Below, piece by piece: positions 1-63,228 of a DNA stretch of 64,000 nucleotides. A program made the translations under genes and the position numbers. The stretch spans positions 15,660 through 79,659 of the forward strand of contig JAFXGW010000009.1 of assembly GCA_017536685.1 (NCBI GenBank), given 5' to 3'. The notes beneath the pieces are model-generated. The model was not told where the DNA came from. It saw only the letters and a list, made by a program, of their open reading frames with translations, and ran no database searches. How positions within the stretch are numbered: the first letter of the stretch is position 1; each line of letters opens with the position of its first letter. Origin of the DNA: Clostridia bacterium (GTDB lineage: Bacteria > Bacillota > Clostridia > TANB77 > CAG-508).

Positions 1-702
1 AGTAGTATAGATTCTGATGATTTTTTTGAACTATCTGATAGATATACTAGTGGAAAATTAAATTTATTAGATTTCATGAACGAATTAACATATATGTGGC
101 CAGATTATACAGAGTATATTTATGGAAAGACAAATGTATACATAACATATCCGCTAAAAGGTATAGAAATTCGCATAAATTATGGTGACATAAACGGAAT
201 TTTGGTGTATAATAATAATAAGAGCAATATGTCAAAAATTAGCAGATATTTAGAAAATACAATATTTGTTGGAAGACTTCAAAAAGACTTAGTTTATGAA
301 GCTGAAAAAAGTCGTTTTGAAGTTTCAAGCAAGCTATTAAATAGATGTAGAGAATATGAAGAAACTTTAAGTGAAGCTGAGAAAAATAGAATCGGTACTA
401 GTATGAAGTATTCTATATATGCTGAAAAAGATGTGAATGGATATATATATTCTATGAAGTTCATTTCACAATTTGGAGAAGAACCTAATAGAGAATTAAA
501 TGACGGAATTTTTTCATATTTGTGGGTAAATAATGATTACTTCTTATTTTCTAAATCAGGAATTGGAGTGTATTTTTATAATTTAAATACAGGTAGGGTA
601 CAAAAGATAGATGGTCTAAGTGGAAATGAGACATATGAGCTTAAAGAATACAAAGATGGAATTTTAAAATATGATGATAAAAAAGCTATGTTACAATTTT
701 AA
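1..702 (+). CDS. hypothetical protein, 5' end lies outside the window
   Basis: The frame of the 76..702 ORF stays open back to nt 1: SSIDSDDFFELSDRYTSGKLNLLDF precedes the first Met. The gene therefore probably starts upstream of the window. Only 26 nt separate it from the next gene, and that gap carries a GAAAGGAGAG RBS. I recognise no motif. Confidence 0.6.
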   Translation, partial: SSIDSDDFFELSDRYTSGKLNLLDFMNELTYMWPDYTEYIYGKTNVYITYPLKGIEIRINYGDINGILVYNNNKSNMSKISRYLENTIFVGRLQKDLVYEAEKSRFEVSSKLLNRCREYEETLSEAEKNRIGTSMKYSIYAEKDVNGYIYSMKFISQFGEEPNRELNDGIFSYLWVNNDYFLFSKSGIGVYFYNLNTGRVQKIDGLSGNETYELKEYKDGILKYDDKKAMLQF

Positions 703-728
703 AAATTGTAACTAGAAAGGAGAGTAAC

Positions 729-3700
729 ATGAAACAATTTAAAATAGTTGTAAAAAAATTGATATTAATAGTTCTACTAATATCTATTTTAATGATGTTT
801 TTTGCTACTCCTGTATCTAATGCAAAATTAGATTTGGAAGATGGTGATTTTTACTATTCAGGAACTACAGAAGGTTCATATAAACCTAAAAATGGAAATA
901 TATTTAGTTGGTTTATAGAATCGCTTGCAGATATTGCCGATTGGATTCTGGGCATTATAACATTAGGACCAAGGATGGTATTTGTAGGGTGGACAGCTTT
1001 ATTGGAAAAATTATTGACTTGGGGAGTTGAATCAGCAAGTGGTGTTAGCGTAGATGGTACTATTGTTTCAGATCCTACAGACTTAACAGATGTAACAGAT
1101 TCGAAAAATAATATTACAGTTGAAGCGATTGTTTATAACAAAGTAGCAGCGTTAGATGCAGATATTTTTGAAACAGAATTTGATAGAACACTTTCTGCTA
1201 CAGGACATAGATTAGTATGTGAAAACTGTGAGGAATTCACTGATGATTTAGGTCTAAAAAGATATAAAGCAAAATATGCAGATGAATGCATTTCAGCAGA
1301 AAAAGCAGCTCAAATAATGGCAAATCCAGAAAGTTATGGTGATGTCGAAAGCATTTGTACATGTGCATGTGGCGGATGTGATGCTTGTAGAATATATGTT
1401 GAACAATTAAAAATAAAAGATCCAATAATATTTAGACTAAAACAATTAATTGCTACATGGTATTACATTATTAGAACTTTAGCAATGGCAGCAATGCTTG
1501 TTGTATTACTTGCAATTGGTATAAAAATGGCTATTTCTACAATTGCTTCTGATAAAGCTGTATATAAGAGAATGCTAGTAGATTGGGTGGTTGGTGTGAT
1601 AATGCTTTTCACATTACACTACTTTATGGTATTTGTAATAAGTACAAATGATATAATGATAGGTGTTATAGAAAAATCAGCTCAATCTGTAAATCAAGCT
1701 TCCTTAGAATCTGTTGCTGATGATTTAAACATGGAACTAGGTGATCTTGAATTAGCTTCAAAAGATTTAGAAATAAGAGTATATGAAGAAATTAGAACAA
1801 GAGCTTATGATGCAAAATTAACAAATGGTATCACTGGCATGATTATGTATATGGCTTTAGTATTTATGGCAATAAAATTCACTGTAATCTATGTTAAGAG
1901 ATTATTTACAATAATGATATTAACATTAATGGCACCAGGAATTGGTGTTGCTTATGCATTACAAAAAGTATTTAGTGGAAAAAGTCATGCTTTAAAAACA
2001 TGGATGACAGAATATATTATGAACGTAATTATTCAAATTGTTCATGCGTTAATATATGCAATATTTATTTCACAAGCACTAATCTTATCTTTAACAAATA
2101 TTGCTGGAATGATTTTTGCTTTAGTATTAATGAATTATACTTCAAAGGCAGAAGAAGTATTTAAGAAAATATTTAAATTTGGTGGAAAAGATAGTCTATT
2201 AGGACATACTGAAAATGCAATGGAAAGCATGAAAGAAAACTTTCAAACAACAAAAGCTATTGTTACAGGTGCTAAACCAGCAGCTAAAATTCTATCAAAT
2301 ACTCCTTATGCAAAAGCGTTAAAAGGAATTGGAAAAATGGCTGTTGCAGGAGCTGTTGTTGGAACAGCAAAGGCTAGTTCAAAGATATCTGAATTAACTG
2401 GTGGAAAAGAAGGTAGAGAAGATAGAAGATATCAAAGAAAATGGGACAAGGAATATGCAAAAATAGAAGCAGAGCATAGTTCTTATGCTACTCGTAGTGA
2501 TAGAGATGCTGAAATTGAAGAAATGCAAAGAGAAGCAACTAGAAGATTAATGCAAAAAGGTATAATTGATCCAAAAATAACAAGAGCAGCTAATGATAGA
2601 TTTTTGGAAACTCCAAGAGCTGATTATCAAGCAAAATTAGATGAAAGTAGTATTGAGCTAGAAAAAGCAAGAAAAGAATTAGAGAACAGTCCTAATGATT
2701 CTCAAGTTAGAAAAACTTATAATGAAGCAGAACAAAGACATGCTGCAGCTCAAGCTGATATAGATAAATATAACGAATTAACAGAAATTAAAACAAGTGA
2801 TATTGTAAAAGGTCGTGCTGAAAAAATATTTGATATTGAGAATGCATTTAGATTTACAAAAGTAGCAGGAAAAACAGATTTTAAAGTTAATACACAAAAT
2901 TTAAATGCAATTTCTGATGCGATATTTGGTACTGCATATTTTGATCCTAAGAAAATGAAATATGTAAGAGCAAAGGATGGTATTTATACAAGATTCTCAG
3001 CAGAAAATATGTTAGGACTTTCAAAAGATGATAAAAAAATACTAAAAGAACAAATTTTATTACCTATGGGAAAAAGTATAGGTGGTATGATATCTTTATT
3101 TGGTGGTATGGGAATGGCTGTAATGGATCCTAAAGTGGGATTACCACTATTAGCTGTCGGAATTCCAGCAACACATAGAACATTTCACAGAACCAAAGAT
3201 AATGATAAATATAAAAATAGAAAATATAAATATGTAAGACCAAGTGTAGGTGCTATAAATACTATGACGAAAGGTGCTACTGAAGAGATTTCAAAAGCAT
3301 CTAGAAGAACAATTGGGGAAAGATTAAAAGCTCGTAGAAAAGGTTTTGTAGAGAAATTTAAAAAAGGTGATGTAAAAGCGGTAACATTAGGAGTTGCTTT
3401 CGGTGCTACTTTAGGACCGGTTGCTCTTGCAACTCATACAGCGTTACATCCTGTAAAAACAGCTAAGGGTATTAAAAATTCAACAATGCAAGTAGTTAAC
3501 TGGATGAAATCAGATAAAGAACACAAAGTACAGTCAGTTAAAAATGCTGGAGTTGCTGCTACAAACTTTTCTAAAAATATTGCAAGGTCTACAGCTTCAA
3601 CAGCAAAATCAACTGGAAAATTTGTAATTGATTCTGAATATAGAAGAGAAAAATTAGGAGACGCGAAAGAAAGCGTGGTTGAATTTTCAAAAGATGTTTC

Positions 3701-6083
3701 ATATACTGCTTCTGAATATTCTTCAAGAGCAAGAAATGCAGGAACTTATGTTGGTGGTAGATTTTATAGAAAGCTTGGTATAAGTGAGAATATAGATAAT
3801 GTAGAAACACATATTTTAAATCAAAGAAGAAAATTGGAACAAGGAATTAGAGAGGATGCCATTAGAATAATGGGAATTCAATCAAGAGCAGAGATGGCTC
3901 AATTGATGGCAACCGAATTCCAAAAATTAGAAGATAGCACAAAAGCTCAGGACATTAAAGCTGCAGAAAAGTTAGGATATGTATTTAATCCTAAAACCAG
4001 AATGATGACTAGAAAAGAAAGAGTTGAAGCTAGTGATATTAGACCAATTAATACATCTAATGTTCAATTAAATCATAAAGATGTTGATCAAATCCTTGAT
4101 AAAATATTACCAAAATTTTCTCATAGAGATGTGAGGGCATCAAAAACACAAAGTGATATTATGGTTGCATTTACAAAAGAATTGAAAGAAAAGAAATATG
4201 ATGGAAAAGTAGAAGATTTATTTACAGACGGAAAAGATGGATTTACCAAAATTGTTAAAGGAAAAATTGGTAAAATTAAAGAAGTGCAACAATTAGAAGA
4301 AGAGCTAAAATCAATTTTAGGAGAAGATGATTTTAAAGTAGTTCAAGGTGTAATAGAAAAATCAGACAAAAAGCAAGATTCAACATCTATGTTAGAACAA
4401 ATTAGCTTAGCTATAGCAGCTGCAACTGCTGCTAGTGAGAATAGTGGCAATGGAGGAGATGATGCTAAAGTTGTTCCTAATAAATCTGTACCAGTTGAAG
4501 AAGTAATAGAAGCAACTGATATAAAGGAACCTGAAAAAAATCATTCAAAACCAAGTCATAAAGAGGTTGATAAAGTATTAGAAGAAGCATTAAAGATTTG
4601 TGGTATAACAGATGTAAAAAGTGAAAGCGCAAAGTCAACTATAATAGATAAATTTACTAGTTTATTACGCGAAGGTGGATACATAAAAGGTGATGAGAAA
4701 GCGGAAGATATATTTAAAGGTGGAAGAACAACACTTAGTGAAAAAATAAACAAAAAAGCAGATAGAATGAAATATGCTGAAGAGTCTGCTAACTCTTCAT
4801 CTGGAACTTCAAATGAAAATATTCCAGGAAAGAGTTCTGTTGCAACTCCTAGATCTAGTGGACAAGTTGACTCATCTAAAGATGGATCAAGAAGTGTAAG
4901 TAAAACACCGAGTGACGCAAAAGCTAGTGGTGCTGTGGATTCTTCTAAAGATGGTTCTATGACAGCAGGTGCCTCAGATCGTGGAAGTGTAGTAGATTCT
5001 AGAAAAACAGGAGATAGTGTTGTTGTATTTTCTGATGGAAGTGAAGAATCAAAAGCTAAAAATAATGCAATATCTAAATATGTAACTGCAATAACTTCTG
5101 GACCTAAAGTTGAAAAAATGAAATCTAAGGGCAGCAGAAAGAAAGTTGCGGAAGCATTAAATATGATGTTGCCTGAAAATGATGCAACTTATGGTACTGA
5201 AAGTATGCCTGAAGAACAAGATTTATCACTTGAAAAGATGTTAGAACAAGTAAAAACAAGTAAAAAGGTTACAAAAGGTGGAAGAGAAGTATCATTAAAT
5301 GATGCTGAAGCAGATACAGCAACAAAGATGTTAGAAAAATTATTGGAAATAAAAGCTGTAAATGAAATTGCTATTAAAGATGTAAGTATGAAGAGTGGTA
5401 CAAAAGAATATGTAAAACAAAGACAAAAGAAGAGTACATTAGCAATTGAAATAAATCAATTAGAAAAACAACATTTGCAATATCAACAACAAAGTGCTAA
5501 TGGAACACAAGATTTACAACAATTAGATAATGCTGGTGGTGTTCAACAAAATGGATATAGTGACTTACAAGGACAACCAAAAGCCAATAATGATGGCGGT
5601 CAAAGATTTGACGAAAATTCAGCAAAATCAGGAACAAACAATAGAAATAGTCAAGGTTATACTGGAAATCAAGGAAGACCAGGAGTAAACAATGGAAATG
5701 GTCAAGGTTATACTGGAAGTCAAGGAAGAGCAGGAGCAAACAACGGAAATGGTCAAGGTTATAATGGAAGTCAAGGAAGAGCAGGAGCAAACAACGGAAA
5801 TGGTCAAGGTTATACTGGAAGTCAAGGAAGAGCAGGAGCAAACAATAGAAATGGTCAAGGATTCACTGGCGCTGTTAAAAATTCAAATCAAAATGCTAAT
5901 TCTGCAAATCCTTATAGAGATCAAGACGCAAAAAGTATTTACAATAGAATTCAACAAAAAAATTCTGAAATAAGAAGAGTAGATCAAAGAATGAAAATGG
6001 CGGGACCAGCAGTTGATATAAATAGTATAATTAAAGATATAAATAAAGCAGCTGATGGCAGCAGGAAGGTAGGTAAAAAATAG
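729..6083 (+). CDS. giant polytopic membrane protein (1784 aa), paralog 1 of a tandem trio; possible extended VirB6/TrbL-like protein
   Basis: The ATG follows a GAAAGGAGAG RBS. The N-terminus looks like a signal peptide (LILIVLLISILMMFFATPVSNA). There are multiple hydrophobic spans. It shares conserved blocks with the next two genes: WYYIIRTLAMAAMLVVLLAIGIKMAISTIASDKAVYKRMLVDW, and GKSHALKTWMTEYIMNVIIQIVHALIYAIF. About 1200 aa of K/E-rich, S-rich and Q/N/G-repeat tail follows. Confidence 0.85.
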   Translation: MKQFKIVVKKLILIVLLISILMMFFATPVSNAKLDLEDGDFYYSGTTEGSYKPKNGNIFSWFIESLADIADWILGIITLGPRMVFVGWTALLEKLLTWGVESASGVSVDGTIVSDPTDLTDVTDSKNNITVEAIVYNKVAALDADIFETEFDRTLSATGHRLVCENCEEFTDDLGLKRYKAKYADECISAEKAAQIMANPESYGDVESICTCACGGCDACRIYVEQLKIKDPIIFRLKQLIATWYYIIRTLAMAAMLVVLLAIGIKMAISTIASDKAVYKRMLVDWVVGVIMLFTLHYFMVFVISTNDIMIGVIEKSAQSVNQASLESVADDLNMELGDLELASKDLEIRVYEEIRTRAYDAKLTNGITGMIMYMALVFMAIKFTVIYVKRLFTIMILTLMAPGIGVAYALQKVFSGKSHALKTWMTEYIMNVIIQIVHALIYAIFISQALILSLTNIAGMIFALVLMNYTSKAEEVFKKIFKFGGKDSLLGHTENAMESMKENFQTTKAIVTGAKPAAKILSNTPYAKALKGIGKMAVAGAVVGTAKASSKISELTGGKEGREDRRYQRKWDKEYAKIEAEHSSYATRSDRDAEIEEMQREATRRLMQKGIIDPKITRAANDRFLETPRADYQAKLDESSIELEKARKELENSPNDSQVRKTYNEAEQRHAAAQADIDKYNELTEIKTSDIVKGRAEKIFDIENAFRFTKVAGKTDFKVNTQNLNAISDAIFGTAYFDPKKMKYVRAKDGIYTRFSAENMLGLSKDDKKILKEQILLPMGKSIGGMISLFGGMGMAVMDPKVGLPLLAVGIPATHRTFHRTKDNDKYKNRKYKYVRPSVGAINTMTKGATEEISKASRRTIGERLKARRKGFVEKFKKGDVKAVTLGVAFGATLGPVALATHTALHPVKTAKGIKNSTMQVVNWMKSDKEHKVQSVKNAGVAATNFSKNIARSTASTAKSTGKFVIDSEYRREKLGDAKESVVEFSKDVSYTASEYSSRARNAGTYVGGRFYRKLGISENIDNVETHILNQRRKLEQGIREDAIRIMGIQSRAEMAQLMATEFQKLEDSTKAQDIKAAEKLGYVFNPKTRMMTRKERVEASDIRPINTSNVQLNHKDVDQILDKILPKFSHRDVRASKTQSDIMVAFTKELKEKKYDGKVEDLFTDGKDGFTKIVKGKIGKIKEVQQLEEELKSILGEDDFKVVQGVIEKSDKKQDSTSMLEQISLAIAAATAASENSGNGGDDAKVVPNKSVPVEEVIEATDIKEPEKNHSKPSHKEVDKVLEEALKICGITDVKSESAKSTIIDKFTSLLREGGYIKGDEKAEDIFKGGRTTLSEKINKKADRMKYAEESANSSSGTSNENIPGKSSVATPRSSGQVDSSKDGSRSVSKTPSDAKASGAVDSSKDGSMTAGASDRGSVVDSRKTGDSVVVFSDGSEESKAKNNAISKYVTAITSGPKVEKMKSKGSRKKVAEALNMMLPENDATYGTESMPEEQDLSLEKMLEQVKTSKKVTKGGREVSLNDAEADTATKMLEKLLEIKAVNEIAIKDVSMKSGTKEYVKQRQKKSTLAIEINQLEKQHLQYQQQSANGTQDLQQLDNAGGVQQNGYSDLQGQPKANNDGGQRFDENSAKSGTNNRNSQGYTGNQGRPGVNNGNGQGYTGSQGRAGANNGNGQGYNGSQGRAGANNGNGQGYTGSQGRAGANNRNGQGFTGAVKNSNQNANSANPYRDQDAKSIYNRIQQKNSEIRRVDQRMKMAGPAVDINSIIKDINKAADGSRKVGKK
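5634..5872 (+). repeat. in-frame 51-bp (17-aa) tandem repeat, about 4.5 copies, unit NNGNGQGYTGSQGRAGA
   Basis: Near-identical units are visible in both DNA and protein: GRPGVNNGNGQGYTGSQGRAGANNGNGQGYNGSQGRAGANNGNGQGYTGSQGRAGANNRNGQGF. Confidence 0.9.
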
Positions 6084-8785
6084 TGAAAAAAATACTGAAA
6101 AAATTTTTGATATGCATACTAATTTTAGTAACTTTAAATAATTTTTTCATATCAAATATAACTTATGCTGCAGAGAATCCAATTATAGCGGCTATTGGAG
6201 ATCAATTAGAAGACTTATTAGGGACTGTAATAGGACTTTTGGCTGCTATTCCTAAGCTAGTTGTGCTACCATTATCCTATGGGGCACAGATGTTAATGGC
6301 AGGTGTTGCGTATTCACAAGGAACTTCAGATGCTGAAGGAAACATATCAACTGGAGTTGTTTCACTAGGAGATAGACTATTTCTTACTCCGTTTGATATA
6401 ATTTTTAATCAAGTAGCTTTAGTAGATGTAAATATATTCAACATACCAAGTCAATTGGGCGCGATTAGAAATATAAGAGTAGCTGTAGCTGGATGGTATT
6501 ATGTAATGAGAAATATAGCCGCAACTATATTGTTATGTGTGCTTATATATGTTGGAATTAGGATGGCTATATCAACAATTGCATCTGATAAAGCTGCTTA
6601 CAAAAAAATGTTAATAGATTGGTGTGTTAGTTTAGCTTTAATATTCTTATTACAATATATAATTGTATTTACTTTTGGAGTAAATTCTGCTTTTATAAAA
6701 TCTTTAGCAGAAACAAGAGATGTAACAGCTTTAGATGAAGCTACGAAAGATTTATTTCTTACAGCAGTTGGACATGATTTGAATTCAGTTGCAGCCACTG
6801 TAGTAATTTGTATGCTAACTTGGCAAACATTTTCTCTACTTATATCATATATACAACGTATGCTTAAAGTTTCGTTTTTAGTTATAATTTCACCTCTTAT
6901 AACATTAACATATTCAATTGATAAAATGGGAGATGGAAAAGCGCAAGCATTAAATACGTGGCTTAAAGAGTTTGTGTATACAGTACTATTGCAACCATTT
7001 CATTGCATAATATATATGGTTTTTGTAGGAATGGCAATAAAATTGATGGGTGGAGTTGGAATATTAGGTTTTGGAGAAATTGATGATAATAATCTTGCAG
7101 CAATGATTCTAATTATATTATGTATTCACTTCACAAAAGAAGCTGAAAAATTATTAGGAAAAATATTTAATTTCAATGATAGTGTATCTGGTGCATCTTT
7201 AGCAACTGGTATGGGAGCAGCTATGATTTTAACATCACAAGCAAAAAATATTGGTAAAGGAGCAAGAACATTAGTTAACGGAGCAAAGAATTTTGCAGCA
7301 TCTAAGCCACTAAGAAATGCTAGAGTTGAATTGGCAACTCTTGGAGCTATTATGCATGGAAAATCAATTGAAGACGCAAAAGCTTCTGCAGAGGAAAAGA
7401 TTAGTGCTCAAGATGCTAAAGTTAAAAACTTTGCTACAAATACAGGCAATACAATTAAGAGGGTAACGGGATATACAGCTGTAAAAGGTGCTTTAAATTC
7501 AGCAAAAGAGAAAGCAACAACTAAAGGAAAAGAAAAGGCAAGAAATAATGCTATTGAAAAAGAAACTCAAAAAATAATGGCAGCTGGTGCTGGAGAAGAA
7601 GCAGCTAGAAAAGAAGCAACTAGAAGAGTTGATGAAAGAACTGAAAAGAAAAATCAAAGAAAACAAAATATAAAAAATGCTAGAACATTTATATCTCAAA
7701 GTAAAACTGCAAATATGCTAACAAAACAAGTATTACCAGCAATGGTTTCTACTGGTGTAGGAGTATTTGTAGGAGCGGGAAGTTTTGGTCTTGGTGGAAA
7801 TGCAGTACAATCAATTATGTTAGGTTCTGGTACATATAAAGGTTCGCAAGAATTCTTTAAAACTAGTTCAAAGAATGTTTCTCAAAATACAGCTGCTTTA
7901 ATTCAAGGGGCTGGAGCACAAGATGAGTCACAAGGTAGAGAAAAAATTGAAGAAGTATTAGAACGTTCTGAGGAATTTGAAAAAGCATCAGAAGAGATAG
8001 ATAAAATTTATGCTGAAATACAAGCAGCATTGGGCGAATTAGATGGAGAGGATTCAAAAAAATTAAAGAGTAGAATTAAAAATGTTGTAGATAAACAAAT
8101 TTTAGAAAATCCTTCATCTAATAATGCTCAAATTATAGATACCCTTGCTAATGATGATAAAATACAAGGGATACTTCAAAATAATAACCAATCTGTAGAT
8201 AATTTTAGGGGATTAGAATCTTTAGATAAATTAATAGGATTTCAAAGAGATGCGAAAATATACGAAAACTTTACAACAGTGGGAACATGGGGATTGTCAA
8301 ATGATGCGATGATTGAAGAAACAATGAGGAAATTTACTGCAAATGCATCTACTCAACCAGTACAAACAGATGCATCACAAGATGGAAATTCTACTCAAAT
8401 GCCATCAAATCCACCGACTACTCCTAACCAAGGTGATGAAGAACAAGTGGATGATTCTAGAGAGGATGATTCTATTGTTGAAGTAGATGAACTTTCTCCT
8501 GAAGATAAAAAAGAATTTGAAAAGCGTATACAAGAAGCTACTAAAGAACAAAATGCGGAAATTGCGTTTTCTATGAATGAAGCTGATAGAATTTGGAATG
8601 AAAACCCAAATTTAACACCAAATGATGTTATAAAAGAACTTAGAAGGCTTAGAAATGATAATACAGAACAAAAAGAAACAATTGAGTATTTAGAAAAGAT
8701 TATAAAACAAATGGGAAATAAAGATAGTTTCTCTCAATTACATCAAAAATATAAATCTAAAATTAATTATGGAGGAAAAGCATAG
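6083..8785 (+). CDS. polytopic membrane protein (900 aa), paralog 2 of the trio
   Basis: The GTG start overlaps the upstream TAG stop (ATAGTGAAAAAAA). It has a signal-peptide-like N-terminus (LICILILVTLNNFFISNITYA). Conserved blocks are WYYVMRNIAATILLCVLIYVGIRMAISTIASDKAAYKKMLIDW and ISPLITLTYSIDKMGDGKAQALNTWLKEFVYTVLLQPFHCIIYMVF. The C-terminal half is charged and coiled-coil-like. Confidence 0.85.
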   Translation: MKKILKKFLICILILVTLNNFFISNITYAAENPIIAAIGDQLEDLLGTVIGLLAAIPKLVVLPLSYGAQMLMAGVAYSQGTSDAEGNISTGVVSLGDRLFLTPFDIIFNQVALVDVNIFNIPSQLGAIRNIRVAVAGWYYVMRNIAATILLCVLIYVGIRMAISTIASDKAAYKKMLIDWCVSLALIFLLQYIIVFTFGVNSAFIKSLAETRDVTALDEATKDLFLTAVGHDLNSVAATVVICMLTWQTFSLLISYIQRMLKVSFLVIISPLITLTYSIDKMGDGKAQALNTWLKEFVYTVLLQPFHCIIYMVFVGMAIKLMGGVGILGFGEIDDNNLAAMILIILCIHFTKEAEKLLGKIFNFNDSVSGASLATGMGAAMILTSQAKNIGKGARTLVNGAKNFAASKPLRNARVELATLGAIMHGKSIEDAKASAEEKISAQDAKVKNFATNTGNTIKRVTGYTAVKGALNSAKEKATTKGKEKARNNAIEKETQKIMAAGAGEEAARKEATRRVDERTEKKNQRKQNIKNARTFISQSKTANMLTKQVLPAMVSTGVGVFVGAGSFGLGGNAVQSIMLGSGTYKGSQEFFKTSSKNVSQNTAALIQGAGAQDESQGREKIEEVLERSEEFEKASEEIDKIYAEIQAALGELDGEDSKKLKSRIKNVVDKQILENPSSNNAQIIDTLANDDKIQGILQNNNQSVDNFRGLESLDKLIGFQRDAKIYENFTTVGTWGLSNDAMIEETMRKFTANASTQPVQTDASQDGNSTQMPSNPPTTPNQGDEEQVDDSREDDSIVEVDELSPEDKKEFEKRIQEATKEQNAEIAFSMNEADRIWNENPNLTPNDVIKELRRLRNDNTEQKETIEYLEKIIKQMGNKDSFSQLHQKYKSKINYGGKA

Positions 8786-11301
8786 TGAAAAAAATTATAA
8801 GTAAAATACTGATAATTTTTATAATAGCAATATTAATGTTTGAGTTTTGCTTCTCAAGCAATATTTCCTATGCGATGGATATTAGTCCTGAATTTATTAA
8901 TGGCTTAACGAGCTTAGCTGGTGGCCTTGTTGCTTATGGAATTTGGTTTCAAAGAATAATTGCTGTTGCAATATCTTCGGTATTTAATGAACTTTTATCA
9001 GTTTCATTTGCTGGTAGTTGTGATGTTAATTGGGGATCAAAACTTGCTTTTGCAACACCATTTGCTATATTTTTTAATAAATATAAATTATTTGATGTTA
9101 ATATATTTGATATTACTGGAACTAATAATGTTTTAAATAATATTAGAAGAGGTACGGCTAGCTGGTTCTACATTATGAGAAATTTTTCAGCTTCGATATT
9201 ACTTTGTATATTAATATATGTTGGAATAAGAATGGCAATCTCAACAGTTGCTGAAGATAAGGCAAAATACAAAAAGATGTTTTTTGATTGGTGCTGTAGT
9301 TTGGCTTTGATATTTGTTTTACAATATATTGCTATTTTTACAATATATGCAAACAATGCTATTGTTGATGCTTTAAAGACATTACATAATGGAAGCGATT
9401 TAGATGAGGCTATTGGAAAAATTGCTTTGCAAGCACTTATGCCAGTTGGAACGGTAAGTATAGTTGCTACTTTTGTATATGTTATGATTGTTTTCCAAAC
9501 AATTTCGTTTATGATAGCATATATGCAACGTGTTTTGAAAGTTGCATTCTTATTAATAATATCTCCACTAATATCAATAACATATTCAATTGATAAAATG
9601 GGAGATGGAAAAGCCCAAGCACTAAATGCATGGCTTAAAGAATTTGTTTATACAATATTAATACAACCATTTCATTGCATAATTTATATGGCTTTTGTTA
9701 ATGCAGCAGTTGCTTTGTTGCCAAATAATACAATTTTGGGTACTTTTGCAAGTTTATTTGCAACAGAGTATAATCAATTAGCAAATGGAATGTTAGTTGT
9801 GCTTTGCTTAAAATTCGTGAATGATGGTGAAAAAGCTATTAGGAAAATATTCGGATTCCAAGATGATGGTAACTTAACATCTATGGCTGCAGGAGCTGTT
9901 GTTGGTATTGCTGTATTAAAAAATGCTCAAAAAATTGGTACATCAACAATAAAAGGAATAAATGGTGCCAAAAATTTCGCAACAGCTTTAAAAGGAAATA
10001 TAGGCGAAGATGCAAAGAATTTTAGAGATAAGTTTCCTGATGCTAAATTTAGTAATACAAAAGTAGGTAAATGGGCTAAAGGAGTAACGTATGGAATTAA
10101 AACTTCAGATAAATTACCAGCAAAAGCATTAAGAAAAGCTGGTGGAGCTGCTAAAAATGTAGGAAAATGGACAGGAAATAAATTTAATTCTTATAAAAAA
10201 TGGAGTGATAATTTCCATGATAAGTTAGGAAAAGAAGCAAATGATCCAAATAAAAATAGATTAATAACTGGTGCTAAGAGCTGGCTTGCAAAAGGAGTTC
10301 CTACTTCTCATAATTTAATGAATGCAATGCCAGGTGCCCTTGGACTTATGGCAGGTGCAATGTCTTATGCAACAGGTACTTCTGGAGCAATGGAAGCTCT
10401 AGGTATGGGAGCAGGATTCCAAAAAGGAGCAGAAGCGCTATTTAGTTCAACTTTAGGAACCACAAGCGATACATTAAGAGAAGAAGATGATAAGCGTGAA
10501 GAAGCACAGTTAGAACAAGAAAAATACAATAAAAATTCAGCTGTAATGGCAGCTGCAACAGATGCTACAGGTAAAGTTAATCCAGATTACAATTCGGATG
10601 ACAAAATTAATGCAGAAGCTCAAAAATATGCAAATTGTATTAACGATGTAGCTCGTTTAGAAGAGCTTTCTAATAAGAGCGAATTGACAAAGGAAGAAGA
10701 AAAAGAAAAAGCTGCATTAGAAAAGTCAAAACCAGAAGAGAAGAAGAAAGCGTTAGAAGCAAAATATGAAAAAGATGGTGTATTAGAAGCAATGCAAGCT
10801 AGGGCTGAATTGGATACTAGAAAAGGAAAAGAAGAATTCAAAAAGAAAAGAAGAGAGAAAAATACAATAGAAGGTAAAGCACTTAGTGCAAAAGAGCTTG
10901 AAGCCAAAGCTGATACATTATTACAAGCAATAATGGAATTAAAATTAAAACAAAAACAAAATGACCCAGAAGTGGATTCAGATATGAAAAATGTTTTAAC
11001 AGATAATGATGTTAGTAGTGCAGAGAAAACATTAGATACCTTAAAACAAACTATTGATAGAAGCTTTGTTTACGGTAGTGGCGGTTCATTTGATATGAGT
11101 AGAATGCTACAACAAGAAATGGGATTAGAAGATGATGGTTCAGAAACATATCAATCTGTAGTAAGAGCTGCATTAGATTATAGAGCAGGAATAGCGAATA
11201 ATAGAGCTGAAGCAGTATATCAAAATTGGGGAAAATTAAATGGAACAAGAGATTCATTAGCTAAAAGAGCTCATAATATAGAAATTCCTCATGAAGATTA
11301 A
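8785..11301 (+). CDS. polytopic membrane protein (838 aa), paralog 3 of the trio
   Basis: It has the same ATAGTGAAAAAAA stop/start overlap as paralog 2. It has a signal-peptide-like N-terminus. Its conserved blocks are near-identical to paralog 2: WFYIMRNFSASILLCILIYVGIRMAISTVAEDKAKYKKMFFDW and ISPLISITYSIDKMGDGKAQALNAWLKEFVYTILIQPFHCIIYMAF. The tail is K/E-rich. Confidence 0.85.
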   Translation: MKKIISKILIIFIIAILMFEFCFSSNISYAMDISPEFINGLTSLAGGLVAYGIWFQRIIAVAISSVFNELLSVSFAGSCDVNWGSKLAFATPFAIFFNKYKLFDVNIFDITGTNNVLNNIRRGTASWFYIMRNFSASILLCILIYVGIRMAISTVAEDKAKYKKMFFDWCCSLALIFVLQYIAIFTIYANNAIVDALKTLHNGSDLDEAIGKIALQALMPVGTVSIVATFVYVMIVFQTISFMIAYMQRVLKVAFLLIISPLISITYSIDKMGDGKAQALNAWLKEFVYTILIQPFHCIIYMAFVNAAVALLPNNTILGTFASLFATEYNQLANGMLVVLCLKFVNDGEKAIRKIFGFQDDGNLTSMAAGAVVGIAVLKNAQKIGTSTIKGINGAKNFATALKGNIGEDAKNFRDKFPDAKFSNTKVGKWAKGVTYGIKTSDKLPAKALRKAGGAAKNVGKWTGNKFNSYKKWSDNFHDKLGKEANDPNKNRLITGAKSWLAKGVPTSHNLMNAMPGALGLMAGAMSYATGTSGAMEALGMGAGFQKGAEALFSSTLGTTSDTLREEDDKREEAQLEQEKYNKNSAVMAAATDATGKVNPDYNSDDKINAEAQKYANCINDVARLEELSNKSELTKEEEKEKAALEKSKPEEKKKALEAKYEKDGVLEAMQARAELDTRKGKEEFKKKRREKNTIEGKALSAKELEAKADTLLQAIMELKLKQKQNDPEVDSDMKNVLTDNDVSSAEKTLDTLKQTIDRSFVYGSGGSFDMSRMLQQEMGLEDDGSETYQSVVRAALDYRAGIANNRAEAVYQNWGKLNGTRDSLAKRAHNIEIPHED

Positions 11302-11330
11302 TAATTAAATAAAATAGGAGAGTAATTATT

Positions 11331-11843
11331 ATGAAAAAAACAAACAATAAATTTGTAATAGCTGGTCTTGGAATAATTGCAGTACTTTTAGTAATAGTTT
11401 TGAATTTGAAGATTCAAAATAAAGAACCAGATTATGAGAACATGTCTGAAGATGAAATTGATATTGCAATTGAAGAAAAAGTTGAAGATGTAAGACTAAA
11501 AAATCTTGCAAAACTAGAGGAAGGAGACAGAATTCAACACTATGCTTCAGACTTTATGGAAAAAGTTGACCTTGGAAAATTTGAAGAAGCATACAATTTA
11601 TTGTATGAAGAATTTAAAAATAATTACTTTCCAACTTTAGCTAGTTTTGAGGAGTATGCAAAAAATAAGTTTCCTACTACTATGACTTTAGAGCATACTA
11701 ATATTGAAAGAAATGGTGATATATACGTTATTTGGACAACTATGTATGATTTAATGAAAGGTAAAGATGCTGGTATTGAAATGAATTTTGTAGTTCAAGA
11801 AAAGGGCTTGAATGATTTTGTTTTATCATTCTCAGTTATTTAG
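11331..11843 (+). CDS. N-terminally membrane-anchored small protein (170 aa), function unknown
   Basis: An AGGAGAG RBS precedes the ATG. There is a single N-terminal TM segment (FVIAGLGIIAVLLVIVLNL). The ectodomain carries the pattern GKFEEAYNLLYEEFKNNYF...FEEYAKNKF, which is also seen in the next gene. Confidence 0.7.
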   Translation: MKKTNNKFVIAGLGIIAVLLVIVLNLKIQNKEPDYENMSEDEIDIAIEEKVEDVRLKNLAKLEEGDRIQHYASDFMEKVDLGKFEEAYNLLYEEFKNNYFPTLASFEEYAKNKFPTTMTLEHTNIERNGDIYVIWTTMYDLMKGKDAGIEMNFVVQEKGLNDFVLSFSVI

Positions 11844-11857
11844 AAAGGAATGTAAAT

Positions 11858-12829
11858 ATGAATGTTACAGAATTAAGATTAAAAATTAGACACTTTTTTA
11901 GAAAATATAGAAAAGTAATAATTATAGGATTAATAATTTGGGCTATAATATTTTTAGTTAATCAAATAATAATGAATATGCCTAAAAACTATGAACCAGA
12001 AACTTCTTATGATGCACATACTTCAATAATGAGCACTTCAAGTAAAACGCCAAAATCTATGAGGCAACCAATAGAAAATGTTATAAAAGAATATGTTGAT
12101 TATTTGAATGAAGGAAATTTTCAAAGTGCTTTTAATATGTTGTCAGATGATTGCAAAAGATATGGTTTTAATTACGATATTAATGAATATATGAAACATG
12201 TATTTACTAAAATGCCAACACCAAAACAATATGCTATTCAAAATTATTCAAATATTAAATATGGTAAAAAGGATATGTATATTTATGAAGTCAGATATTT
12301 TGATGATTTTTTAGCAACAGGTTTAACTAATTCGAAATATGAATATACTTCAGAAGATATTACTTTCTATTATGGTGATAATGGATTGGAAATGAATGTT
12401 GGAAATTACATATATCATACAGATATAAAAAATATTTCAGAAAATGATTATTTAAAAATTGATGTTATTGATAAAGTGGTTAATTATAGTATAGAAACTT
12501 ATGAAGTGAAATTTACTAATAGATCTGATTATATTGTAGTTGTTGCTGATGGTGTGGAAGAGGATGAAGTTCAACTTCTATTACCTAACGAAACAAGGCA
12601 ACCTTCAGAATTTACAGATATAATATTAGGACCAGATGAATCTATAACAGCCAAATTTACTTTCCCTAAATTTGTTGATGATGGAGATATGGCATTATCT
12701 TTAGTATTCTCTGCAGTTAGAGTAATGGAAAAATATTCTGGAACTGAAGACGTAGATGAAGCTGTTATTCAAGAGGAAATAAATAATGCGATTTCTAAAT
12801 TTAGTATGGAAGTTGCTATAACAGAATAA
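11858..12829 (+). CDS. N-terminally membrane-anchored protein (323 aa), function unknown
   Basis: A GAAAGGAA RBS precedes the start. There is a single N-terminal TM segment (VIIIGLIIWAIIFLVNQII). The membrane-proximal module (GNFQSAFNMLSDDCKRYGF...INEYMKHVF) resembles the preceding gene, and a further beta-rich domain follows. A strong terminator lies downstream. Confidence 0.7.
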   Translation: MNVTELRLKIRHFFRKYRKVIIIGLIIWAIIFLVNQIIMNMPKNYEPETSYDAHTSIMSTSSKTPKSMRQPIENVIKEYVDYLNEGNFQSAFNMLSDDCKRYGFNYDINEYMKHVFTKMPTPKQYAIQNYSNIKYGKKDMYIYEVRYFDDFLATGLTNSKYEYTSEDITFYYGDNGLEMNVGNYIYHTDIKNISENDYLKIDVIDKVVNYSIETYEVKFTNRSDYIVVVADGVEEDEVQLLLPNETRQPSEFTDIILGPDESITAKFTFPKFVDDGDMALSLVFSAVRVMEKYSGTEDVDEAVIQEEINNAISKFSMEVAITE

Positions 12830-12890
12830 AGATTAATATGAATTTATTAATTAGATGATTTGAAAATATTAATAAATAAAATTAAATAAA

Positions 12891-12946
12891 AAAACATCTT
12901 TTATATAAGTAAGCTTAAAGCTACTATTATAAAAGATGTTTTTTCT
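12891..12946. terminator. bidirectional rho-independent terminator between convergent genes
   Basis: A perfect 15-bp stem, AAAACATCTTTTATA (12891-12905) pairing with TATAAAAGATGTTTT (12928-12942), is flanked by an A-run on the left and a T-run on the right. Confidence 0.8.
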
Positions 12947-12953
12947 TATTAAA

Positions 12954-13130
12954 TTATTTTTGTTTAGTATTTTTTGATTTTTTTTCATTTTTCTTTTTTT
13001 GACGATAATTTTTCCACCATTCGTATACTACGCCACCTTCTTTAAGACTTCCAGATGTCCTTCCCCAATACCAAAAGAACCCAATGAAAGTAAGTAGAGC
13101 TAGAATTATATACATAAGAAATTTTTCCAT
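12954..13130 (-). CDS. small membrane peptide (58 aa), absent from the ORF track because it is under 60 aa
   Basis: My minus-strand translation is MEKFLMYIILALLTFIGFFWYWGRTSGSLKEGGVVYEWWKNYRQKKKNEKKSKNTKQK. A GAGGT RBS lies about 8 nt upstream of the ATG. The peptide has one TM helix and a lysine-rich tail. It ends at the bidirectional terminator. Confidence 0.5.
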   Translation of the reverse strand: MEKFLMYIILALLTFIGFFWYWGRTSGSLKEGGVVYEWWKNYRQKKKNEKKSKNTKQK

Positions 13131-13487
13131 AAATTTACCTCATTTAATTTTACATAATTTTATATAAATATTATAAAATTTTATGATTGAAAAATCAATA
13201 GGAAATAAATAATTTTATAATTAAACCAATGTAGCATATATTTATAAAATAAATTGATATTGAAATTGCAGTTTATTTTTATGCTTATAAATAGACTATA
13301 TAAAATAACTATAAATAACTGTAAGATTAAAATTATTAATTTTATGACAAAAAATTGATAGGAGTTAGTAAATAGAACATAATAAAAATTATTCTTTATT
13401 ATAAGAAAGTGTTAATATTTTAATTCAAAAAATATATAAATAATTAATATTGTAATCAAAATGTAAAAGGATTACCATAAAAAACTA

Positions 13488-13516
13488 TTGATAAGATATA
13501 TTAAATACTATACAAT
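13488..13516 (+). promoter_or_regulatory. sigma-A-like promoter for the hydrolase gene
   Basis: TTGATA (13488-13493), a 17-bp spacer, then TACAAT (13511-13516). Confidence 0.4.
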
Positions 13517-13568
13517 ATAATTGTAAAAATAGATTTTGAAGCACTAATGAAAGGAGGAAGTAAATAAA

Positions 13569-14891
13569 ATGAGTAAGTATGATAGAGACTATTTAGAAGA
13601 AGCAAAAAGACTTCCGGACCTTTTTAGAGAGATTCAAGATATAAAATATGGACGAGCCGAGGCACAAGTATTAGAACGAGATAAAGAAACAATAAATTTT
13701 AATAGAATATATGTTGTTGATCATAGATTTAACGCAGCTGGAGTAATAATTGGAATATTATTTTTGATATTATTTTCTACAGCAATTCATGGCAATTATA
13801 TATTTGCCAAAACTGATGAAGAAAAGATTGCGATAGGAAAATTTGAAGAAAATAAAAAATCAATAAATATGATGGACACAATTTCAACCAATATTAGTGC
13901 TTTTACAAAAAAAGAGATTATTAGTAAAGAAATTGATATTGCATATGAAACTAAATATGTAGAAACAGATTTATTGCCTAAGGATGAACAAAAAATTATT
14001 CAAAGTGGATCAAATGGAAAAATTGAACAAACGTTGATATTAAGCTATGAAAATGGTGAATTATTAAGTGAAGAAGTAATAAATGAGTGTACTGTTTCTG
14101 AACCAATTAAAGAAATAATAGAGGTAGGGACTTCAGAATTCTTATATAAGAATAAGGTTCATGTGGGAGATTTAATGTATACACTTGAAGAGATAGATAT
14201 TTTCTCAAATGAGAACTTAGAAGAAACTTTAGGTTACATATATCCATATATAGATTTAAAAATACTTTCGGAGAAAGATGGGGTAGCCAAAGTTTTAGTA
14301 GATGGTACGGAAGGATTTGTTAAAGCGAATAAAATTACTTCAGAAGCAATGACACCAGGAATTAAAGAAAAGAGTAGAATACAAAGAATTGTTGTTAATG
14401 TTAATCCAGATATGAAATTAAATAAACCAAGTGGTCTTACAAAAGATGACTTCAAAAAAATTTTTTCTGGAAATGCTAATGATACGAATAAGATTTTTGA
14501 AGAAAATGCTACAGTGTTTTTTGAAATGGAACAGATGTATAATGTTAATGGCATTTTTATAGCGGCAATAGGAATTCATGAAAGTAATTGGGGAACATCG
14601 AATATAGCGATTCAAAAGAAGAATTTATTTGGTTATGGTTCTTATGATTCATCTTCTTATGAATCTTCATACATATTTGATAGTTATGAAGATGGAATTG
14701 ATGTAGTTACAAGAACCATGGCTAAGAATTATTTAAATGAACGAGGCACAGAAATTTTTGATGATCAAATTGCAGATGGTACATATTATAATGGCCCTAC
14801 AATTTCGGGCGTAAATGTTAGATATGCTAGTGATTCTAATTGGGCAACAAGAGTTTACGAAATAATGCTTTCACTATATAAAAAGTTATAA
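13569..14891 (+). CDS. membrane-anchored peptidoglycan hydrolase (G5-like, SH3-like and N-acetylglucosaminidase domains)
   Basis: A GAAAGGAGGAAG RBS precedes the start. A cytoplasmic N-terminus of about 55 aa is followed by a TM segment (AAGVIIGILFLILFSTAI). The G5-like segment is YETKYVETDLLPKDEQKIIQSGSNGKIEQTLILSYENGELLSEEVINECTVSEPIKEIIEVGT. The SH3b-like segment is DGVAKVLVDGTEGFVKANKI. The C-terminal glucosaminidase-family signature is FIAAIGIHESNWGTSNIAIQKKNLFGYG. Confidence 0.8.
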   Translation: MSKYDRDYLEEAKRLPDLFREIQDIKYGRAEAQVLERDKETINFNRIYVVDHRFNAAGVIIGILFLILFSTAIHGNYIFAKTDEEKIAIGKFEENKKSINMMDTISTNISAFTKKEIISKEIDIAYETKYVETDLLPKDEQKIIQSGSNGKIEQTLILSYENGELLSEEVINECTVSEPIKEIIEVGTSEFLYKNKVHVGDLMYTLEEIDIFSNENLEETLGYIYPYIDLKILSEKDGVAKVLVDGTEGFVKANKITSEAMTPGIKEKSRIQRIVVNVNPDMKLNKPSGLTKDDFKKIFSGNANDTNKIFEENATVFFEMEQMYNVNGIFIAAIGIHESNWGTSNIAIQKKNLFGYGSYDSSSYESSYIFDSYEDGIDVVTRTMAKNYLNERGTEIFDDQIADGTYYNGPTISGVNVRYASDSNWATRVYEIMLSLYKKL

Positions 14892-14913
14892 TTAGAAAAG
14901 GAATGATAAAAGT

Positions 14914-15741
14914 TTGAAAAAAAGAAAGATTAATACAGTTGCTATATTATTAATAAATATCGGACTATTAATATTTTCATTTTTTATATATAAATATATT
15001 TTTGAAGTAGAAACGTTAAAAAGAACTTATGCTGAAGAGACAACAAAATTTATTGAAGAAAATGAAAATCCTGTATTTAAAATTGGTCAAATAATTTTAT
15101 ATAGTAGTGCATTTGCTAATGATAATAGTAATGGAGATTTAAAGGATATTGATATAAGTCAATTTACTGATATAGAAATTTATATAGATAATAAATCTAA
15201 AGTTGAAGAAATAACAGCAGAAAATACAATAAATGAAATGTATATAAGTAATATAAAAATCGAGAGTACAAAAGAAGATGAGGAAAAGATTTTTAATTAT
15301 AAAAATCCACAAAAATGTGGTAAATATGTGGATTTATCAAATTGGGAAGCTGATGGTATTTTATTCAATATTATTCGTACTAATGAAGAAAATGAAAGTG
15401 CAAATTATGATCAAAATATATTTTTTACAGATTGTTCGAATCCAATTTCTTTAGGGTATATAAATAGGAATATATTAGAAGGCTGCGAAGTGAGCAAAGA
15501 TGTTGGAACTGTGAATTTTGATGGGACAATATTGAAAAGTGCAGGAATTGATGTGGAGGATTTAAAAACCAAAATAAGTTTTTCAATTAATATAACAAAT
15601 AATTATAATGAAAAATTCGTATGTAATTTAGATCTTGATGTGGACTTAGAAAGTGATGATGAAGGAATATATTCAGGATATTTAATAAAGATGTTAAATC
15701 CAGAAGGTGATAAATATAATTTTATAAAAGTTTTAGATTAG
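14914..15741 (+). CDS. N-terminally anchored protein (275 aa), paralog of the 17433..18161 product
   Basis: It uses a TTG start and has a single N-terminal TM segment. It aligns with the 242-aa product of 17433..18161: PVFKIGQIILYSS aligns with LPFSISKILVVST, and VNFDGTILKSAGIDVEDLKTKISFSINIT aligns with ITYDGKLLSNLGVTVPEIEFNVNFDVIIT. Confidence 0.7.
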   Translation: MKKRKINTVAILLINIGLLIFSFFIYKYIFEVETLKRTYAEETTKFIEENENPVFKIGQIILYSSAFANDNSNGDLKDIDISQFTDIEIYIDNKSKVEEITAENTINEMYISNIKIESTKEDEEKIFNYKNPQKCGKYVDLSNWEADGILFNIIRTNEENESANYDQNIFFTDCSNPISLGYINRNILEGCEVSKDVGTVNFDGTILKSAGIDVEDLKTKISFSINITNNYNEKFVCNLDLDVDLESDDEGIYSGYLIKMLNPEGDKYNFIKVLD

Positions 15742-15835
15742 AAAATCAAGTTTAGTAAAGAGGAAACAAAAATAGGTGACCTTGACAGCTATACTTGATT
15801 TTTCTTATAAATACATATATAATATAAAAGTAAAT

Positions 15836-15911
<76 letters not shown>

Positions 15912-16011
15912 CATATTATAAAAAAATTAGACTAAGGGACTCGAAAAGGAGGCTGCCCGAACAAAGAGAGGGTTAAAATAGTCCAGTGGACTATTTTACC
16001 GACGCGGCTCG

Positions 16012-16042
16012 CGAGTCCCTTTGTGCACACCACATATTATAA
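16012..16042 (+). repeat. direct repeat copy 2 (orphan tRNA-Arg 3'-end fragment, att-like)
   Basis: CGAGTCCCTTTGTGCACACCACATATTATAA lies 90 nt downstream of the intact tRNA. No matching 5' tRNA half is present. Confidence 0.9.
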
Positions 16043-16083
16043 GTGCAAATAAGATAATAACTATGATATTAGATGGAGATAAT

Positions 16084-62911: not shown

Positions 62912-63228
62912 TAATAGGAAAGTTTTCTTATTAAATAAAATGCTTCGCATTACTGTTGTACTCAAATTTTATTACATAAAATTTGGCACACGAACAAGAT
63001 GGGGCAAATAAGTTTTTTGAAAAATGAATAATTTAAAATTTGCTTCTTTTGTTCTTTAATATGAATGTGTATGTTTCTTAATAGTAAATTAATCAAAATT
63101 GAAACAATAATTATGATGAAATATACTGTTTTGTAATGAGAAAGTAATATATATTGTAATATTTTTGCTTGATTCTTAAAAGGTAGCATGATATAATAAA
63201 TTTGATATTTATGTGGAAAGGAAAGAGA

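Follow-up and report, generated by a model that had tools for sequence, protein, structure and literature searches.

The closest known counterparts of the locus analysed here are the type IV secretion systems (T4SSs) of Patescibacteria, for example those of Southlakia epibionticum ML1 and Nanosynbacter TM7x (PMC12102498, PMC12857230). These systems are chromosomal and often origin-proximal, have no relaxase nearby, and combine arrays of 2-11 pilin genes with TrsD, PrgI, VirB4 and VirB6; in one species the system is essential for epibiotic growth (PMC12102498). A review of December 2025 described VirB2 pilins as absent from Gram-positive T4SSs except those of Patescibacteria, and the latter as unique among monoderms in their potential for conjugative pili (PMC12857230). 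The VirB4 tree constructed for Patescibacteria contains only references from plasmids and integrative and conjugative elements (ICEs) (PMC12102498), and systems like the one described below were therefore not sampled. This system lies in a 64,000-nucleotide stretch of DNA (the window, whose positions are used throughout; contig JAFXGW010000009.1) from a Clostridia bacterium of the TANB77/CAG-508 lineage. TANB77 is an uncultured clade that has been linked to cancer immunotherapy response, and the conserved pilin cluster described for it is a Tad-type pilus (PMC11680825). A literature search for T4SSs in TANB77, CAG-508 or Scatovivens found none.

Positions 1-15741 of the window are, in the reading that we consider likely, the distal part of a ~25-kb chromosomal T4SS that is vertically inherited, non-conjugative and probably pilus-building in TANB77/CAG-508-like gut Clostridia. 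The system is VirB4-based and related to the monoderm MPF_FATA class. Its genes follow the order of four to six pilins, a PrgI/VirB3-like protein, a TrsD-like protein, VirB4, a short VirB6-like protein, two bitopic paralogs (394 and 513 amino acids, aa), three extended VirB6-like proteins and two NTF2-like proteins (170 and 323 aa), with a hydrolase in a separate unit (Table 1). This reading is carried by the gene content, the VirB6-like fold of the largest proteins, an ancient and retained paralogy, a fixed chromosomal position, and a neighbourhood without coupling protein, relaxase or integrase. In common with the Patescibacteria systems, the Clostridia cluster is monoderm, chromosomal and proximal to the replication origin, has no relaxase near virB4, and occurs in small host genomes; both also encode a divergent array of VirB2-like pilins (PF18895/PF04956), VirB6-like proteins and wall hydrolases, to which the Clostridia cluster adds a putative TrsD-like protein beside VirB4 and a putative PrgI/VirB3-like protein, as counterparts of those in Patescibacteria. 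It differs from them in its Clostridia host, in having up to four VirB6-like paralogs (three of 840-1800 aa) and two bitopic paralog pairs, and in that no type IV coupling protein (T4CP) was seen nearby. The likeness is one of gene content and genomic setting.

Five genes of the window had been recognised in the initial annotation as three tandem, translationally coupled giant membrane proteins (1784, 900 and 838 aa; here P1, P2 and P3) followed by two small anchored proteins (170 and 323 aa). The open reading frame (ORF) list and translations agree with this description, and at both junctions between giants (P1/P2 and P2/P3) the stop and start codons overlap as TAGTG, with Shine-Dalgarno-like GGAGG/GGAAGG upstream. 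Signal-peptide-like N-termini followed by a helical hairpin were likewise confirmed, by the sequences and by AlphaFold2 (AF2) helices (H33-53 and H55-76), as were the single transmembrane helix of each small protein and the strong terminator that closes the five genes. The latter is a hairpin with a 17-bp stem (dG -22.2 kcal/mol, z -8.06) followed by a T-run; this AT-rich terminator was missed by a simple consensus scan and was confirmed by folding. It is probably bidirectional and shared with a convergent 58-aa ORF for a small membrane protein (12954-13130, minus strand), which gene calling also reports on three further contigs from this strain or close relatives of it.

Two parts of the earlier description had to be revised, namely that the five genes form a closed operon and that there are three paralogs. 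Metagenomic contig L093, which represents the window's own genome, is 100% identical over its positions 3919-16795 to window positions 1-12877 and reaches 3.9 kb further upstream. On this contig the unit does not begin at position 729, the operon continues upstream, and an apparent 208-aa ORF at 76-702 is the 3' end of the gene for the 513-aa bitopic protein. The unit thus seemed closed and devoid of an NTPase because the window edge cuts the cluster: the reported absence of a Walker A motif holds for the five window genes, which have no conserved one, but not for the cluster, to which a VirB4-type ATPase just upstream belongs. A Walker-A-like string in the P2 tail, GAIMHGKS, was discarded as a chance occurrence that is not conserved in orthologs.

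Upstream on L093 lie the VirB4-type ATPase, a short paralog of the giants (420 aa), which brings the number of paralogs to four, and the bitopic proteins of 394 and 513 aa. The two bitopic proteins are paralogs of each other (E 3e-19), and ~510-aa orthologs of the longer one occur in ~20 species. The ATPase, for which an upstream search had been proposed, is a 667-aa DUF87/P-loop_TraG protein ~3.9 kb upstream of P1, just past the left edge of the window. Its 664-aa ortholog in relatives matches the NCBIfam VirB4 CD1110 family (E 5e-61), the Mycoplasma ICE VirB4 model (E 1.5e-57) and TraC/VirB4 models. The short paralog directly follows VirB4 in loci with three or four copies, and lineages with a single copy carry one extended paralog in that slot. 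Further upstream, ~20 related species have the same order of a ~420-aa protein, a 111-aa protein and four to six tandem genes of ~125-140 aa. Four of these pilins in relatives exceed the PF18895 (T4SS_pilin) cut-off (28-38 bits against 26.6), and one also matches TrbC/VirB2 (PF04956). The protein of 111-127 aa is weakly PrgI-like (Pfam PrgI E 0.004, below the cut-off; a precomputed PrgI label in a related lineage is graded weak), and its gene is conserved in size and position among relatives. The match of the 422-aa protein to a VirB4 model is confined to positions 105-385 (E 0.002), and that of the 664-aa ATPase begins only at position ~180, an arrangement seen at loci L012 (2707-5989) and L083 (12578-15857); we therefore interpret the 422-aa protein as the N-terminal region and the ATPase as the remainder of a split VirB4, as described for TrsD. 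A precomputed TraC-like label (PF26593) on the 422-aa protein was not reproduced with our Pfam copy.

The assignment of the giants follows from fold and context. P1, P2 and P3 align over ~400 aa and contain two strongly conserved transmembrane blocks, the second of which is degenerate in P1, as first noted; a family alignment of 85 sequences shows no variation at W138, R143, G158, M161, P271, Y277, W293 and Q304. An AF2 model of the P2 core (aa 1-416) generated from this alignment is a bundle of long helices with a predicted local distance difference test (pLDDT) score of 82 and a predicted template-modelling (pTM) score of 0.75. When this model was compared with 350,542 PDB chains using Foldseek, a search that the initial annotation had recommended, ranks 1-5 were all TrwI/VirB6 of the R388 T4SS (probability 0.97-1.0, E 0.019-0.12, template-modelling (TM) score on the target 0.45-0.51, 255-273 columns of the 260-272-residue target), and no other specific fold match appeared below them. 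There are also weak matches to the NCBIfam Mycoplasma ICE transmembrane models NF045848 and NF045889 (P3 against NF045889, E 0.004), and two family members match, in a weak and collinear manner, two consecutive parts of the same models. A weakly similar plasmid-borne protein sits between VirB4/DUF87 and a wall hydrolase. Searches of PDB sequences with phmmer and with profiles gave no match, or matches to the low-complexity tails only. The suggestion that the giants are VirB6/TrbL-like is thus supported by four independent lines: the fold; the TrbL names found among related proteins (a precomputed Pfam TrbL_3 label on some homologs, and a phage protein in BFVD); the weak Mycoplasma ICE matches; and the gene context, with VirB4 upstream and, in relatives, PrgI-like and pilin genes beyond it. 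In contrast, the proposed comparison with PrgH and TcpH came out negative: hhalign probabilities for the family profile were 0.8% for TcpH and 0.1% for PrgH, with single sequences as targets and hence limited sensitivity. As fold and context are positive and the direct comparison is negative, the giants are classed here as VirB6-like on the basis of the predicted fold and their context, without being assigned to the PrgH or TcpH family.

Like VirB6/TrbL proteins (TrwI of R388, VirB6 of A. tumefaciens), the giants are polytopic with long helices, are encoded beside VirB4, and have the N-terminus outside and the C-terminus probably inside. They differ in a cleavable-looking signal peptide, an embedded pilin-like hairpin, C-terminal tails of ~500-1300 aa, and the lack of a significant sequence or profile match. 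Extended VirB6 proteins, such as TcpH of pCW3 (832 aa) and a 1562-aa protein of B. cereus pBFI_1, share with them a VirB6-like N-terminal domain with a large hydrophilic extension and a location near VirB4 and a wall hydrolase. The identity of the pBFI_1 protein to the window family is only 23% (E 6e-3), and Gram-positive systems of the pCW3/pBFI_1 type are conjugative, with a T4CP and relaxase. Families of extended VirB6 paralogs in tandem, as found here, are reported for Rickettsia, Ehrlichia and Anaplasma (PMC7648143, PMC2653234); those Rickettsiales systems are diderm.

Could the giants instead form an unrelated or phage-derived envelope apparatus, for example a tape-measure-like protein with a lysin, to which the T4SS genes are mere neighbours? 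Such an origin would fit the lack of significant matches when the five window proteins were scanned against Pfam, NCBIfam and PHROGs, and the best fold match of the core in BFVD, the uncharacterised protein G3MBL9 (Gp153 of Bacillus phage G, a jumbo phage; E 3.3e-5). We nevertheless regard it as very improbable, given that the PDB fold matches are specifically to VirB6, that the paralog directly after VirB4 occupies the canonical VirB6 slot, that tape-measure matches in BFVD have probabilities of at most 0.33 whereas a phage protein named TrbL stands at rank 5, and that the family is essentially absent from IMG/VR. A phage or tape-measure origin of the giants was accordingly rejected on the PHROGs, IMG/VR and BFVD evidence. 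Some Bacillus phages may themselves encode VirB6-like membrane proteins.

The first conserved transmembrane block of every paralog is a helical hairpin resembling a VirB2 pilin. Pfam T4SS_pilin matches this block with up to 27.8 bits (cut-off 26.6, exceeded by one homolog), and hhalign places a profile built from the cluster's own pilins on it with a probability of 95.6% (E 1.2e-8), the pilin loop AAPGDKADIKK falling on STVASDKAKYKK of the VirB6-like hairpin. A role of these proteins at the base of a pilus therefore fits, and the presence of the hairpin within VirB6 gives a testable lead on pilus seeding by VirB6.

Beyond the cores, the low-complexity hydrophilic tails described earlier are indeed K/E/S/G-rich, measuring ~1300 aa in P1 and ~480-570 aa in P2/P3 when counted from the core ends. 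Identity between orthologs is 26-41% in the tails against 51-71% in the cores. The tails are K/R-rich directly after the last core helix and contain further Gly/Ala-rich hydrophobic segments; in view of the K/R-rich start, the positive-inside rule predicts that they are probably cytoplasmic, at least proximally. In some species the core (409 aa) and the tail (456 aa) of paralog 2 are encoded by separate genes (L080, 10001-12800; L008, 5635-8434), so the tail is a separable module. P1 also contains a cysteine motif, CxxC ... EC ... CxCx2-3CxxC (window ~1218-1394, P1 aa ~164-222), that is kept in orthologs of 13 species inside an otherwise hypervariable insertion in a loop predicted to be extracellular. 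The motif may bind a metal or form a disulfide knot.

The module that the two small proteins were said to share is marginal by BLASTP (E 0.029) and real at the profile level, where the 170-aa and 323-aa ortholog profiles align over 130 columns (hhalign probability 92.9%, E 3.6e-7). In the AF2 model of the 323-aa protein (pLDDT 82), helices at 66-118 are followed by a curved sheet at 124-195, and Foldseek matches in PDB are NTF2-like proteins: the PBP2a N-domain, scytalone dehydratase, dioxygenase beta subunits and 3ebt. With 60-64% identity, similar to the cores of the giants and well above their tails, this protein is one of the best conserved in this part of the cluster; the 170-aa gene is syntenic in relatives. 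With VirB8, TcpC, PrgL and TraM the two proteins have in common one N-terminal transmembrane helix, an extracytoplasmic NTF2-like domain and a location in a T4SS cluster, and the presence of two copies recalls pIP501 (TraM, TraH) and pCF10 (PrgL, PrgD). They differ from these in showing no sequence similarity, a weak TcpC fold match and, in the 323-aa protein, an added Ig-like domain. The earlier comparison with VirB8/TcpC thus stands for the predicted architecture of a membrane anchor with an NTF2-like domain and fails for a specific match to TcpC; judging from the models, both proteins appear VirB8-like in architecture, though not specifically so.

The G5-glucosaminidase encoded after the terminator is probably the wall-opening enzyme of the system, of the VirB1/TcpG type and in a separate transcription unit; TcpG of pCW3 is likewise a glucosaminidase-domain protein. 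Its gene is syntenic in other strains of the window's organism and, in another species, likewise follows the 322-aa gene; a 273-275-aa gene corresponding to the one that accompanies it here is syntenic in L080-82 and L089-92. Other lineages have Peptidase_C39_2 or Phage_lysozyme2+GDSL giants instead as the cluster-associated wall hydrolase.

A survey of relatives, as had been proposed, covered 77 species-level loci, all from species-representative genomes and all in metagenome-assembled genomes of uncultured gut or rumen Clostridia; the named hosts among them, Candidatus Scatovivens and Merdicola, belong to GTDB TANB77/CAG-508 (PMC13106387). The locus is conserved in place, and the order pilins, PrgI, TrsD-like protein, VirB4, VirB6-like protein(s), NTF2-like proteins is universal among them, with VirB4 seen in 71 and pilins in 61 of the 77 loci. 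Housekeeping flanks are the same across species and no variable insertion site was seen. In two species an ArsC/Spx-like gene lies directly upstream of the pilins, with unrelated genes beyond, and in distant lineages M16 peptidases and PBP5 border the cluster. Clades differ in how many VirB6-like genes they carry: one (extended, 830-1020 aa, after VirB4), three (S, the short paralog, with P1 and P2) or four (S, P1, P2 and P3), the last being found in the window's clade. In a paralog tree of 13 species each of the classes S, P1, P2 and P3 is essentially monophyletic and their sub-clades are congruent, so the duplications are old and have been retained; one sub-clade has a P3 that was copied from P2 recently. 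The VirB6-like family as a whole comprises ~4,750 clusters at 50% identity, and only a single fragment was matched among the 2.9 million contigs of IMG/VR.

Conjugation genes were sought with phmmer in 91 loci and the window (1.79 Mb, 1701 ORFs), using as queries PcfC, TcpA, TcpB, PcfG and TcpM of pCF10/pCW3, a tyrosine integrase and a serine recombinase, with the VirB4 protein PrgJ of pCF10 as a positive control. No coupling protein, relaxase, integrase or recombinase was matched in the 1701 ORFs, although relaxases of other MOB families would escape phmmer, whereas the VirB4 control matched 48. Pfam domains of these kinds were also absent within 10 kb upstream of the pilins (in two species) and in the 48 kb that follow the cluster in the window. 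The initial annotation had made the T4SS reading depend on ATPase or DNA-processing genes nearby and on a locus that is not simply conserved and vertically inherited. An ATPase does lie nearby, and the homology to T4SSs therefore stands; the lack of DNA-processing genes together with the conserved position argues against conjugation and not against a T4SS.

These results bear on the possibility that the cluster is the ordinary conjugative T4SS of an integrated element (an ICE) that transfers DNA and whose T4CP, relaxase and integrase are distant or too divergent to be recognised. All components are homologous to MPF_FATA conjugation machinery, the closest plasmid relatives lie in transfer-like regions, a tRNA-Arg gene is located just downstream, and T4CP genes can lie far from virB4 (PMC12102498). 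We consider such an element unlikely, however, since the search above returned the control alone, gene order and housekeeping flanks are the same across genera, the four paralog phylogenies are congruent, and IMG/VR holds only the one match. The tRNA turns its 5' end, not its 3' end, toward the cluster, and G+C content is ~0.29-0.33 in the cluster against ~0.23-0.32 in the rest of the window, ranges that overlap. Integration of an ICE at this tRNA-Arg was specifically dismissed in view of the wrong tRNA end, the missing integrase and the conserved flanks.

A different function for a vertically inherited T4SS would be that of a DNA uptake or release machine (ComB-like or Ced-like), or of a one-way exporter of effectors or toxins to the milieu (as in the S. 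suis 89K system), rather than a pilus for contact. Uptake systems are found among T4SSs that lack a nearby T4CP, the VirB4 weakly matches the archaeal DNA-import ATPases CedB and CedD (E ~1e-6), and some Patescibacteria T4SS loci adjoin competence genes (PMC12102498). The cluster, in contrast, contains no ComEC-type or DNA-binding genes and no apparent candidate effector/immunity pairs, its conserved array of four to six VirB2-like pilins suggests a filament, and the CedB/CedD matches are generic to the P-loop and far below family cut-offs. An uptake or export role of this kind is accordingly improbable.

For a pilus-building T4SS, the structure of R388 offers a model: there the base of the stalk is a VirB6 pentamer of seven long helices, on which the VirB2 pilus is proposed to grow, driven by VirB4 (PMC9259494). 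By analogy with this pentamer, the four VirB6-like proteins could form a membrane platform above a VirB4 hexamer, together with PrgI and the TrsD-like protein. VirB4 would then pull VirB2-like pilins from the membrane and polymerise them on the platform into a T4SS-type pilus, which the NTF2-like bitopic proteins and the hydrolase would carry through the thick wall. The long, fast-evolving tails may act as paralog-specific scaffolds or substrate receptors. The machine might serve contact-dependent exchange with, or attachment to, other cells, as proposed for the Patescibacteria T4SS, and not conjugation.

Several points weigh against the reading of a non-conjugative, pilus-building T4SS. The pilus, the hetero-oligomer and the topology of the tails are inferred from genes and models. 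No significant hidden Markov model match to VirB6/TrbL, PrgH or TcpH was obtained for the window proteins; TrbL_3 (PF19590) is only a precomputed label on some homologs that hmmscan with our Pfam copy did not return, and the Foldseek E-values and TM scores (~0.5) that link the core to VirB6 are modest. TcpC (3ub1_A) is a poor fold match to the 323-aa model (rank 12, probability 0.13, TM score 0.11-0.14), the hhalign probability of the 323-aa profile against TcpC is 0.4%, and the NTF2-like fold is so common as not to be specific to VirB8. A coupling protein or relaxase could also lie elsewhere in the genome, as is common in Patescibacteria, the search having covered the loci, and relaxases outside the queried MOB families would be missed.

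If the reading of a vertically inherited, non-conjugative T4SS holds, the locus contradicts the 2025 review (PMC12857230) by placing a pilin array, a TrsD-like protein, VirB4 and VirB6, chromosomally fixed and with no relaxase nearby, in bona fide Clostridia. What would be new is that a T4SS of the Patescibacteria style, with a pilin array and apparently without a role in conjugation, occurs in Clostridia and there has an expanded set of extended VirB6 paralogs; the general design had been described only from Patescibacteria. It is not rare, being present in at least 77 species-level genomes, and, after Rickettsiales, it would be the second example in nature of extended VirB6 paralogs that have been kept in tandem. 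A bolder proposal, which we advance only tentatively and think rather less likely than not to be correct in full, is that the TANB77/CAG-508 machine is the Bacillota counterpart of the Patescibacteria T4SS, and possibly its missing sister or donor lineage: a vertically inherited, non-conjugative machine building a VirB2-type pilus, in which the hairpins of as many as four VirB6 paralogs would act as the template of the pilus base, and which would mediate contact-dependent exchange with partner cells. For the question of how the Patescibacteria system arose, the cluster is in this respect a candidate outgroup or donor. Such exchange with partner cells, if true, would help to explain the resistance of the clade to cultivation. 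The host clade is of medical relevance through its association with immunotherapy response.

Table 1. Features of the cluster and its downstream border in the window
Feature	Position	Strand	Evidence or remark
3' part (last 233 codons) of the gene for the 513-aa bitopic membrane protein	1..702	+	Window edge cuts the gene; full gene on L093
Extended VirB6-like paralog P1, 1784 aa: signal peptide, helical hairpin, Cys-rich insertion, polytopic VirB6-like core, low-complexity tail of ~1300 aa	729..6083	+	
51-bp tandem repeats in the P1 tail, 17-aa units GNGQGYTGSQGRAGANN	5629..5860	+	blastn self-matches, peptide repeats
Extended VirB6-like paralog P2, 900 aa	6083..8785	+	AF2 model of aa 1-416, Foldseek PDB, TAGTG coupling to P1
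Pilin-like hairpin	P2 aa ~124-198 (window 6452-6676); P1 aa ~236-310; P3 aa ~113-187		
Extended VirB6-like paralog P3, 838 aa	8785..11301	+	TAGTG coupling to P2
170-aa bitopic protein: N-terminal transmembrane anchor and module homologous to the NTF2-like domain of the 323-aa protein	11331..11843	+	hhalign; synteny in relatives
323-aa bitopic protein: transmembrane anchor, NTF2-like domain (~aa 66-195), Ig-like beta-sandwich (~aa 199-320)	11858..12829	+	AF2, Foldseek
Intrinsic terminator hairpin between A-run and T-run	12889..12944	+	Folding
Membrane-anchored G5 and glucosaminidase peptidoglycan hydrolase	13569..14891	+	Pfam G5 3.7e-18, Glucosaminidase 4e-12
275-aa bitopic protein, travels with the hydrolase gene	14914..15741	+	No family match
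tRNA-Arg(CCT)	15836-15911		Downstream of the cluster; 5' end, not 3' end, faces the cluster

Beyond the cluster the window continues with the tRNA-Arg, a tadA fragment, the signal recognition particle RNA, dnaX-ybaB-recR, cofD, holB and cell-wall genes. At the border itself, loci L080-82 have an extra gene for a 233-aa ABC-type ATPase after the 322-aa gene, which is absent from the window. The 275-aa protein is weakly similar (E 6e-5) to a 242-aa bitopic protein encoded at 17433-18161, and the tRNA-Arg and an ORF for a 294-aa polytopic membrane protein lie between the two genes. An 84-aa ORF at 17198-17452 corresponds to the C-terminal half of a TadA-like deaminase (PCxMC motif) and represents a truncated pseudogene or else a gene whose start was misplaced; L080 has an intact deaminase at the equivalent place. 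Further downstream, a 5128-aa surface protein (22465-37851) with repeated SpaA (prealbumin-like) and MucBP domains is, from this domain composition, probably a giant adhesin, and a sortase gene is located at 63202-63990. A 2670-aa protein (39170-47182) combines glucoamylase-like, GH94 supersandwich and GH94 catalytic domains, an architecture that we take to be reminiscent of cyclic beta-1,2-glucan synthases and that would presumably be unusual in a Clostridia genome.

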